DNA of 64,000 nucleotides from a virus. The position numbers were made by a program, and so were the translations under genes. Positions within the stretch are counted from its first letter, which is position 1. Each line of letters starts with the position of its first letter. Below the pieces are notes generated by a model, which did no database searches, was not told the DNA's origin, and saw only the letters and a program-made list of their open reading frames with translations. Positions 60,246-60,364 of the stretch are shown in pieces. The stretch is from positions 64,001 through 128,000 of IMG/VR virus record IMGVR_UViG_3300042698_000029; one strand, written 5' to 3'.

Positions 60246-60364
60246 TGGGAAGAGTGGGATTCGAACCCACGATTTCCGCTGACACGCAGACGTTGCCTAG
60301 GTCGACTGCATAGACGGATCAACCGGATTTCGTCCGGCCCCATAAGCCACTCGGGCATCTTCCC
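60246..60364 (-). ncRNA. Aberrant tRNA-like RNA (Ser(CGA)-like; 5-nt anticodon loop, about 50-nt variable arm)
   Basis: Acceptor GGGAAGA/TCTTCCC, D-arm CCC-GAGTGGCTTAT-GGG, CCGGA-CGAAA-TCCGG, long variable region, T-arm GTGGG-TTCGAAT-CCCAC. Confidence 0.75.

Follow-up and report, generated by a model that had tools for sequence, protein, structure and literature searches.

A tRNA-shaped RNA gene of 119 nt, lying within the tRNA cluster of a soil actinophage-like virus, is a structured RNA under purifying selection and not a decaying pseudogene; this follows from compensatory evolution in which all base pairs are retained. No described family covers this RNA, which is so far limited to one clade of soil actinophage-like viruses. 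Our preferred reading, held with moderate confidence, is that it is a selected, non-decoding class II mimic derived from tRNA-Ser, which would be processed like a tRNA and would engage a tRNA-binding factor. Phage tRNA genes are usually ascribed to codon supply or, more recently, to the replacement of tRNAs destroyed by defence nucleases; the 119-nt RNA suggests that selection can also keep a tRNA that has apparently lost decoding, gained a 45-nt arm and changed its discriminator base.

The RNA gene and its setting

The window analysed here (64,000 nt in all) comprises bases 64001–128000 of a 153,126-bp IMG/VR virus record (IMGVR_UViG_3300042698_000029), which has direct terminal repeats and ~64% G+C. 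All tRNA-type genes of the whole genome are encoded on the minus strand between window positions 58963 and 62702. Six tRNAs of the cluster are canonical (Lys-CUU, Gln-CUG, one with anticodon CAU, Thr-CGU, Arg-ACG and Ile-GAU) and several others are aberrant. When the element and 8 kb of its surroundings were compared by BLAST with 50,697 phage records, nothing matched, and that collection contains no close relative of the phage. Positions within the RNA are given as p = 60365 minus the window coordinate, the RNA running from 60364 to 60246, and its features and those of its surroundings are as follows.

60246–60364, minus strand: the whole tRNA-shaped RNA gene, 119 nt (Rfam RF00005, orthologues, covariance model)
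60358–60364, minus strand: 5' strand of the acceptor stem, GGGAAGA, making 7 Watson-Crick pairs with 60247–60253; invariant in all orthologues
Between acceptor stem and D arm, minus strand: U8 G9 (from sequence)
60339–60355, minus strand: D arm, CCC-GAGUGGCUUAU-GGG, with an 11-nt loop that includes G18G19; invariant except for one loop base in the orthologue on contig L036
Between D arm and anticodon-like arm, minus strand: G26 (from sequence)
60323–60337, minus strand: anticodon-like arm, CCGGA-CGAAA-UCCGG, 5 bp with a 5-nt loop (60328–60332) and no U33 (from sequence); stem invariant
60271–60322, minus strand: expanded variable region of ~50 nt, RNA positions 43–94 (MFE fold, compensatory changes)
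60274–60318, minus strand: long irregular hairpin within the variable region, RNA positions 47–91 (MFE fold, alignment)
60293–60302, minus strand: apical loop of the variable arm, 10 nt, with invariant CCUAGGC (alignment)
60296–60301, minus strand: palindrome CCUAGG in the apical loop (alignment)
60254–60270, minus strand: T arm, GUGGG-UUCGAAU-CCCAC, with two double compensatory changes in the orthologue on contig L035
[quoted passage not shown]
60215–60245, minus strand: 31-nt trailer that doubles as 5' leader of the DUF7873 gene and carries its GAAGGA ribosome-binding site (alignment; spacer 31–33 nt)
59474–60214, minus strand: DUF7873 gene, 246 aa, with a GTG start at 60214 (Pfam PF25283, E 6e-92)
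61483–61556: tRNA look-alike in the cluster with a conserved 5-nt loop, GAUAA
59075–59148: tRNA look-alike in the cluster with a conserved 8-nt loop

The Rfam tRNA model RF00005 scores 43.1 bits on exactly 60246–60364, against a gathering score of 29, and handles 56 nt of the RNA as an insertion; the orthologues described below score 43.7–45.8 bits, so that all of them count as tRNA by that threshold. Default ARAGORN makes no call on the RNA. MFE folding reproduces the cloverleaf listed above, with a 5-nt anticodon loop and a long irregular hairpin as variable arm. Sequence and fold bear out the acceptor, D and T arms of that annotation as canonical and its anticodon arm as drawn, with five loop nucleotides and no U33; its estimate of ~50 nt for the variable region is likewise correct, the AUGCAG/CUGCGU pairing that it had seen being real and forming part of a longer irregular hairpin. 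The features that build the D/T elbow (G18G19, T-loop UUCRAAU, U8, A14 and G15–C48) are all present together with the acceptor stem, and each is invariant or compensated in the orthologues. The combination expected of a functional decoder (5-bp anticodon stem, 7-nt loop, U33 and purine 37) is not found in the RNA. Its acceptor/T-stem geometry is 7/5, which sets it apart from allo-tRNAs and tRNA-Sec-like RNAs with their 8/4, 9/3 or 8/5 geometry and long anticodon stem.

Orthologues and selection on structure

Logan contigs from other soil metagenomes cover 60177–60545 and show no substitution or indel inside the 119-nt RNA, and compared with window 59900–60700 they differ at nine flanking sites. 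These contigs represent near-identical strains, with 0 SNPs over 119 nt compared with 9 over 801 nt, a difference that lacks significance. Since independent soil contigs reproduce the RNA, the alternative of an assembly error, which the first-pass annotation had named, is ruled out.

More distant orthologues were sought by a metagenome scan with the closest relatives of the DUF7873 protein, which yielded three contigs (L035, L036 and L041) whose DUF7873 is 74–80% identical to that of the window. Each carries a 119-nt orthologue (L035:5851–5969, L036:624–742 and L041:2270–2388) that is an Rfam tRNA match and sits 32–33 nt upstream of the DUF7873 gene, the corresponding spacer in the window being 31 nt. 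The resulting alignment of four sequences, three of them distinct and all from one narrow clade, is free of gaps. The sequences differ by 17–19 substitutions, yet none of the 34 base pairs is non-standard in any of them. Six pairs show double compensatory changes, four of them in the variable arm (47:91, 54:81, 56:79 and 58:77) and two in the T stem of L035 (96:110 and 97:109), and two further pairs are changed on one side with pairing kept. The observed pairing was matched by 1 of 500 column shuffles, slid registers pair at 37–47%, and in simulation 17–19 random substitutions leave all pairs intact about once per 1e5 trials. The substitutions are distributed very unevenly: there are none in the acceptor stem, none in the anticodon stem and 0–1 in the D arm, and most fall in the variable arm (13) and in the T stem, where they are compensated. 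The proposal that intact stems reflect selection on shape and not decay is thus upheld, and homologues, in which random decay was to have counted against it, show compensatory changes instead.

Serine character and the discriminator base

A covariance model (R1) built from the four-sequence alignment scores the orthologues at 143–151 bits. Its best canonical matches in other DUF7873-bearing phages are tRNA-Ser(UGA) and tRNA-Ser(GCU), at 40–54 bits, and on a Streptomyces genome tRNA-Ser(UGA) reaches 52.7 bits, with tRNA-Tyr behind at 44–46 bits. The D arm is nearly identical to its counterparts in Streptomyces tRNA-Ser(UGA) and in a phage tRNA-Ser(GCU), and the T arm of the L036 orthologue is identical to the Streptomyces tRNA-Ser T arm. 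The body of the RNA most resembles actinobacterial tRNA-Ser.

The bacterial serine identity set consists of C72, G2–C71, R4–Y69, C11–G24, G30–C40, a large variable arm and G73 (PMC9976931), and the 119-nt RNA contains all of these elements except the last: all four sequences have A73, whereas G73 is found in every genuine phage or Streptomyces tRNA-Ser examined. The earlier description of the RNA as Ser-like agrees with these matches and identity elements, with G73 as the exception. [quoted passage not shown] Because A73 stands in place of a determinant, serylation by SerRS appears less likely than the first-pass annotation had assumed.

The same base recurs in a second RNA of this kind. Positions 1293–1386 of another viral contig (L182) encode an RNA with a Ser-type body, A73, a 12-nt stub for an anticodon arm and a 29-nt variable arm. 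Model R1 gives at most 39 bits on this RNA and 14.5 bits on the 167-nt neighbour, the sequences are unrelated, and an exact-pattern scan of IMG/VR for the L182 RNA returned its own contig only. It is an independent analogue of the 119-nt RNA. [quoted passage not shown] A73 is shared by these two Ser-like mimics of independent origin, which speaks against efficient serylation. Other DUF7873 phages carry tRNA look-alikes of 65–71 nt with truncated anticodon arms, and these, together with the look-alikes of the present cluster, suggest that soil actinophages possess a layer of tRNA mimicry not described so far.

The anticodon loop and the variable arm

Across the alignment the anticodon stem, the closing A–U pair and the length of the loop are invariant, and within the tRNA core unpaired positions differ only at loop bases 2–3, which are GA in the window (CGAAA) and CU in the relatives (CCUAA). 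Genuine serine loops read C-U-N-G-A-A-A for UCN codons and C-U-G-C-U-A-A for AGY codons, and without their U33 and N34 these loops would be exactly CGAAA and CCUAA. A chance of ~0.01 can be put on two different dinucleotides both turning out to be serine cores; the pattern was spotted post hoc and represents one evolutionary change, so we treat it as a lead, not as a result. The loops can also be read in other ways, N34–36 being CGA (Ser) in the window and CCU (Arg) in the relatives, and a 7-nt drawing with C33 giving GAA (Phe) and CUA (amber), respectively. No site covarying with the loop change (a complement of CGAAA versus CCUAA) was found in the conserved block. The anticodon loop could pair with the CCUAGG loop in the relatives (CCUA:UAGG) but not in the window, and such pairing was therefore rejected as a conserved feature. 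A 5-nt loop without U33 argues against decoding, and the non-decoding RNA envisaged by the first-pass annotation is the most likely reading.

Three helices, 47–51/86–91, 53–59/76–82 and 61–62/73–74, make up the variable arm, a hairpin of ~14 bp that is interrupted by one bulge and one mismatch and capped by the 10-nt loop. The hexamer CCTAGG occurs 5 times in the 153-kb genome, compared with 52 occurrences expected from composition; given this strong depletion, retention of CCUAGGC in the apical loop looks selected. No conserved pairing partner for the CCUAGGC loop was found in the conserved block. A long arm that is itself under selection and that presents an invariant loop argues for a specific binding function.

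Neighbourhood and distribution

In BLAST comparisons with L035, L036 and L041, homology starts 1 nt before the 5' end of the RNA and runs through the DUF7873 gene, a YrlA-like RNA (0.8 kb from the 119-nt RNA, within the same conserved block) and the next tRNA-like gene. The 320 nt upstream of the RNA are unique to the window and are absent from all three contigs. They include an ORF of 79 aa (60364–60603), the last base of whose TAG stop is G1 of the RNA. This ORF has no relatives in IMG/VR, belongs to no Pfam or PHROG family and has no counterpart in L035, L036 or L041; it is probably not a gene, and the overlap of its stop codon with G1 is therefore without meaning.

Beyond the clade, model R1 found nothing that exceeds ordinary tRNA scores in 80 viral and 80 bacterial DUF7873 loci, 50 whole viral records, five actinobacterial genomes and the rest of the phage genome. 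DUF7873 loci outside the clade (80 bacterial, ~80 viral, and contigs L002 and L037–L040) have the YrlA-like RNA downstream and lack the 119-nt RNA upstream, and other DUF7873 phages have ordinary tRNAs upstream of the gene. The 119-nt RNA thus appears, from the loci compared, to be a clade-specific addition to the DUF7873 block and not a core or obligatory part of it. Exact-pattern scans of IMG/VR gave no match for the anticodon arm combined with the T arm, and for the anticodon arm combined with CCTAGG gave one chance match (L042) that R1 does not recognise.

The phage genome contains no gene for TROVE/Ro60, RtcB or a CCA-adding enzyme, no aminoacyl-transferase or synthetase gene was seen beside the RNA, and a simple scan of the cluster detected no promoter or terminator. 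For the DUF7873 protein, the AlphaFold model (pLDDT 83) has no Foldseek match in the PDB at E <= 0.001. VIA-align ranks 3kdq_A highest (Z 8.4), a protein whose function is unknown, and the other matches are generic coiled-coil hairpins, including the helical arms of SerRS and FemA/FemX, at Z ~7–8, which is within the stated noise of the tool. These comparisons offer no hint of what the protein does. A literature search found no paper mentioning DUF7873.

Alternative explanations

Decay of a tRNA-Ser gene into a pseudogene, an intron-bearing tRNA-Ser(CGA) and an assembly error are, taken together, hardly credible explanations. Decay is countered by the compensatory evolution described above, and assembly error by the independent contigs with the same sequence. 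An intron has in its favour that ARAGORN -i places one of 27 nt at position 31/32 of a proposed tRNA-Ser(cga); in that drawing, however, one pair of the anticodon stem never forms, a variable-stem pair is broken in two of the three sequences, and U33 becomes C in the relatives, so that removal of the insert leaves no canonical conserved anticodon arm. We know of no bacterial splicing mechanism for such a tRNA intron. Very improbable, too, is an explanation at the level of DNA, by which a dead tRNA-Ser gene would harbour an internal sigma-70-type promoter (TTGAYC, 17 nt, TAGGCM) that drives DUF7873. The two elements, TTGA(U/C)C at RNA positions 43–48 and UAGGC(A/C) at 66–71, are indeed conserved and exactly 17 nt apart, but the candidate −10 element lacks its final T and varies in its last base, the promoter scan was empty, and both the 17-nt 'spacer' and the outlying T stem change by compensatory pairs, which is the signature of RNA structure. 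The RNA might instead serve purely as punctuation, a signal for RNase P and RNase Z that frees the DUF7873 mRNA and leaves an excised RNA without function. The fixed spacer of 31–33 nt before the DUF7873 start, the onset of homology 1 nt before the 5' end of the RNA and the empty promoter and terminator scan are all consistent with this idea. A processing signal requires the acceptor/T half alone, however, which leaves the four compensated pairs of the variable arm, the invariant CCUAGGC and the invariant short anticodon arm unexplained, and in other DUF7873 phages ordinary tRNAs precede the gene. We consider pure punctuation unlikely; what survives of the earlier suggestion of a processing signal for the downstream gene is a plausible side effect, which does not account for a selected 45-nt hairpin and its loop.

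The two remaining alternatives keep more of the ordinary life of a tRNA. In one, the RNA would decode with an unorthodox arm: the stretch of 17 nt that separates the D stem from the variable region can also be written as a 5 + 7 + 5 arm in which no nucleotide 26 is left, the stem (G·U, C-G, C-G, G-C, G-C) is closed by G·U, and the 7-nt loop reads A-C-NNN-A-U with C33. Its anticodon would be GAA, reading UUY, in the window and CUA, reading UAG, in the relatives, the amino acid being set by a Ser/Leu/Tyr-like body; a variant of the same idea is a 'wobble-less' adaptor that would read serine boxes by two bases. GAA and CUA are each one change from the Tyr anticodon GUA, SerRS and LeuRS disregard the anticodon (PMC9976931), and class II tRNAs with non-cognate anticodons exist, such as nev-tRNAs (PMC3333845) and allo-tRNAs (PMC7609411). 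Against decoding stand C33 at a position where U33 is near-universal, the Watson-Crick pair A32–U38, which makes the 5-nt loop the stable fold, and the rejection of the RNA as a tRNA by default ARAGORN. A two-base switch of anticodon between close orthologues with identical bodies would moreover be unusual for a decoder, and the second look-alike of the cluster, which also has a conserved 5-nt loop, points to deliberate shortening of the loop. No ribosomal substrate is known to have a variable arm of 14 bp, and on balance decoding seems to us somewhat less probable than pure punctuation.

The other alternative, suggested by the first-pass annotation, is an aminoacylated non-decoding carrier, charged by way of its class II body and used outside the ribosome, for example as an aminoacyl donor, as a synthetase sponge or for 3'-end protection. 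The intact acceptor/T half, the long variable arm and the presence of most serine identity elements favour it, as does a T stem identical to that of host tRNA-Ser, which would preserve the contacts made there by EF-Tu and synthetase; M. smegmatis YrlA, moreover, is cut by RNase P and receives CCA (PMC4201824). It is nevertheless about as unlikely as punctuation, since A73 replaces G73 in both anticodon-disabled Ser-like RNAs, leucine features are absent as well (for example G15 instead of A15), and the RNA is not seen to adjoin an aminoacyl-transferase or synthetase gene.

Proposed function

For the preferred reading, a non-decoding mimic derived from tRNA-Ser, the following sequence of events may be envisaged. 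RNase P and 3' processing enzymes would excise the 119-nt RNA from a transcript of the cluster, and the host would add CCA, as for the neighbouring tRNAs; processing and CCA addition are presumed because the acceptor/T half and the D/T elbow are canonical. The 5-nt loop, which consists of C, serine bases 35–36, A37 and A38 with neither U33 nor a wobble base, would preclude codon reading on the ribosome, and the switch from G73 to A73 would weaken serylation. The variable arm, grown into a hairpin of ~14 bp, would display the invariant CCUAGGC loop. By molecular mimicry the RNA would then occupy a factor that recognises tRNA-Ser-like bodies. A candidate target is a host tRNA-directed nuclease or another tRNA-binding enzyme, for which the RNA would be a decoy or competitor; alternatively the partner may be a phage factor, such as the co-inherited module of DUF7873 protein and YrlA-like RNA, for which the long arm would provide a specific handle. 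Were the target a tRNA-directed toxin or a synthetase, the 119-nt RNA would be an RNA-only inhibitor.

A more specific version, which is doubtful though somewhat more probable than either punctuation or a charged carrier, is that the RNA serves solely as a decoy against host defence. It would keep just the serine bases 35–36 (GA in one phage lineage, CU in another) with A37 and A38, and, having lost U33, the wobble base and G73, it would be neither cleaved productively nor charged nor used in translation. It would trap a host nuclease directed at tRNA-Ser or another defence protein that binds tRNA-Ser, and the arm with its CCUAGGC loop would be the handle for a phage partner such as DUF7873. 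If true, this would add a new class, based on RNA, to the counter-defences of actinobacterial phages. Published work makes such a role reasonable. [quoted passage not shown] Phage tRNAs have been proposed to counter such nucleases, with avoidance of Ser(NGA) tRNAs, which are cut at GA (PMC10264068). The CU loop of the relatives lacks the GA site that is cut by the known Ser-specific VapCs, and a single decoy target therefore cannot explain both the window and its relatives.

Relation to known RNAs

Among known RNAs the closest parallel is bacterial class II tRNA-Ser, especially the actinobacterial UGA and CGA species, which share with the 119-nt RNA the 7-bp acceptor stem, the 3-bp D stem with an 11-nt GAGYGGC loop, the long variable arm and the serine identity pairs, and in Streptomyces an identical or nearly identical T arm. 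Unlike tRNA-Ser, the 119-nt RNA has a 5-nt instead of a 7-nt loop, neither U33 nor N34, A73 instead of G73, and a variable region of ~50 nt compared with ~16–21 nt. YrlA and the bacterial Y RNAs (RF02553; Chen et al., 2014, PMC4201824) resemble it as non-decoding RNAs of actinobacteria and phages that carry a tRNA-like module, probably recognised by tRNA enzymes. In contrast to YrlA, the 119-nt RNA is not circularly permuted, has its own open acceptor end and has no Ro60-binding stem; RF02553 gives no match on 60246–60364 even at E up to 1, and the genome has no TROVE gene. A review of non-canonical tRNAs gives the anticodon loop as 7 nt, and the passages of it retrieved by term search describe no tRNA with a shorter anticodon loop or a comparably long variable arm (PMC7609411).

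Nuclease-evading phage tRNAs (van den Berg et al., 2023, PMC10264068; Azam et al., 2024, PMC11555353) are likewise phage-encoded and altered specifically in the anticodon loop, and the likely hosts of the present virus (Actinomycetota) carry VapC toxins that cleave tRNA-Ser (PMC5175351). Those tRNAs, however, retain a 7-nt loop and decode, whereas the 119-nt RNA is two loop bases short and most likely does not. Because loss of these bases most likely bars decoding, it could act only as a decoy and not as a replacement tRNA. Mimicry of tRNA without ordinary decoding, in which the acceptor/T half is preserved, is seen in the plant-virus 3' TLS, in tmRNA and in Bacillus cereus tRNA-Other. The 119-nt RNA differs from these in being free-standing in a phage tRNA cluster, with no mRNA part, a class II body and an oversized arm, and ARAGORN finds no tmRNA in the window or in the whole genome. 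In routine annotation, genes of this kind are filed as tRNA by Rfam and are either dropped or called intron-bearing by ARAGORN.

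Structured RNAs neighboring the 119-nt RNA

The minus-strand tRNA cluster that carries the 119-nt tRNA-Ser-like RNA and the DUF7873 gene also holds the following structured RNAs, listed with their copies in contigs of related phages (L035 and L041).

Window 59075-59148 (-): tRNA-like gene, with an anticodon stem of 5 bp and a loop of 8 nt, CCUAUGGU
Window 59149-59473 (-): downstream of the DUF7873 gene, a YrlA-like RNA whose tRNA module is permuted
Window 60822-60988 (-): tRNA-shaped RNA whose insert is large and structured; copies L035:5094-5250 and L041:1752-1918
Window 61483-61556 (-): 74-nt tRNA-like gene; copies L035:4622-4696 and L041:1283-1355

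The tRNA-shaped RNA with the insert is kept in the relatives, at lengths of 157-167 nt. The gene at 61483-61556 has a degenerate D arm and a stem of 3 bp closed by the 5-nt loop GAUAA; the relatives keep this stem and loop and show compensatory changes in the T stem. The loop reads as the Ile anticodon GAU followed by AA, resembling a loop without positions 32-33.

The tRNA-like gene at 59075-59148, which ARAGORN labels 'tRNA-???', is the same in the related contig L036 except for two flanking bases (98% column identity in an 84-column alignment), though identity in the adjoining DUF7873 gene falls to ~82%. The DUF7873 gene followed by the YrlA-like RNA is an arrangement common to the window, L035-L040 and L002, the last being, like L037-L040, a locus without the 119-nt RNA. 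RF02553 matches the YrlA-like RNA partially (59205-59262, 30.5 bits), and despite the presence of this RNA the window's genome has no Ro60 gene.

Unusual tRNAs in other viral contigs

Truncated or otherwise atypical tRNAs were found in other viral contigs, most of them DUF7873-bearing.

L176:1530-1595, L179:3621-3686, L123:4150-4214 and L156:2519-2589: tRNA look-alikes near a DUF7873 gene, 65-71 nt, anticodon arm truncated or missing
L182:1293-1386: Ser-type tRNA look-alike of 94 nt, from an unrelated phage that carries DUF7873
L183:4031-4124: 94-nt class II tRNA, anticodon UCA, 3' of a DUF7873 gene
L033:67-142: 76-nt tRNA-Leu(CAG) of class I architecture, its variable loop being short

The L182 look-alike, for which no relatives were found in IMG/VR, has discriminator A73 and a two-tier variable arm of 29 nt; its anticodon arm is replaced by a stem of 4 bp capped by a GCGC tetraloop. 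The L183 tRNA is called tRNA-SeC by ARAGORN and may be a UGA suppressor. The tRNA-Leu(CAG) belongs to a 160-kb relative with 35 tRNAs (IMGVR_UViG_3300028800_000061).

Genomic setting of the 119-nt RNA

Immediately upstream, a 320-nt stretch (60365-60685) is found in the window's genome only, and its mosaic boundary lies 1 nt ahead of the 5' end of the 119-nt RNA; at this place L035 carries instead a segment homologous to window 61941-62213. CCTAGG, the palindrome within the apical loop of the RNA's variable arm, is depleted about ten-fold in the whole record (5 sites, with 52 expected). Of these five, two are at the terminal repeats, at distances of ~24 bases from the start of the record and ~97 from its last base, and both read CCTAGGC.
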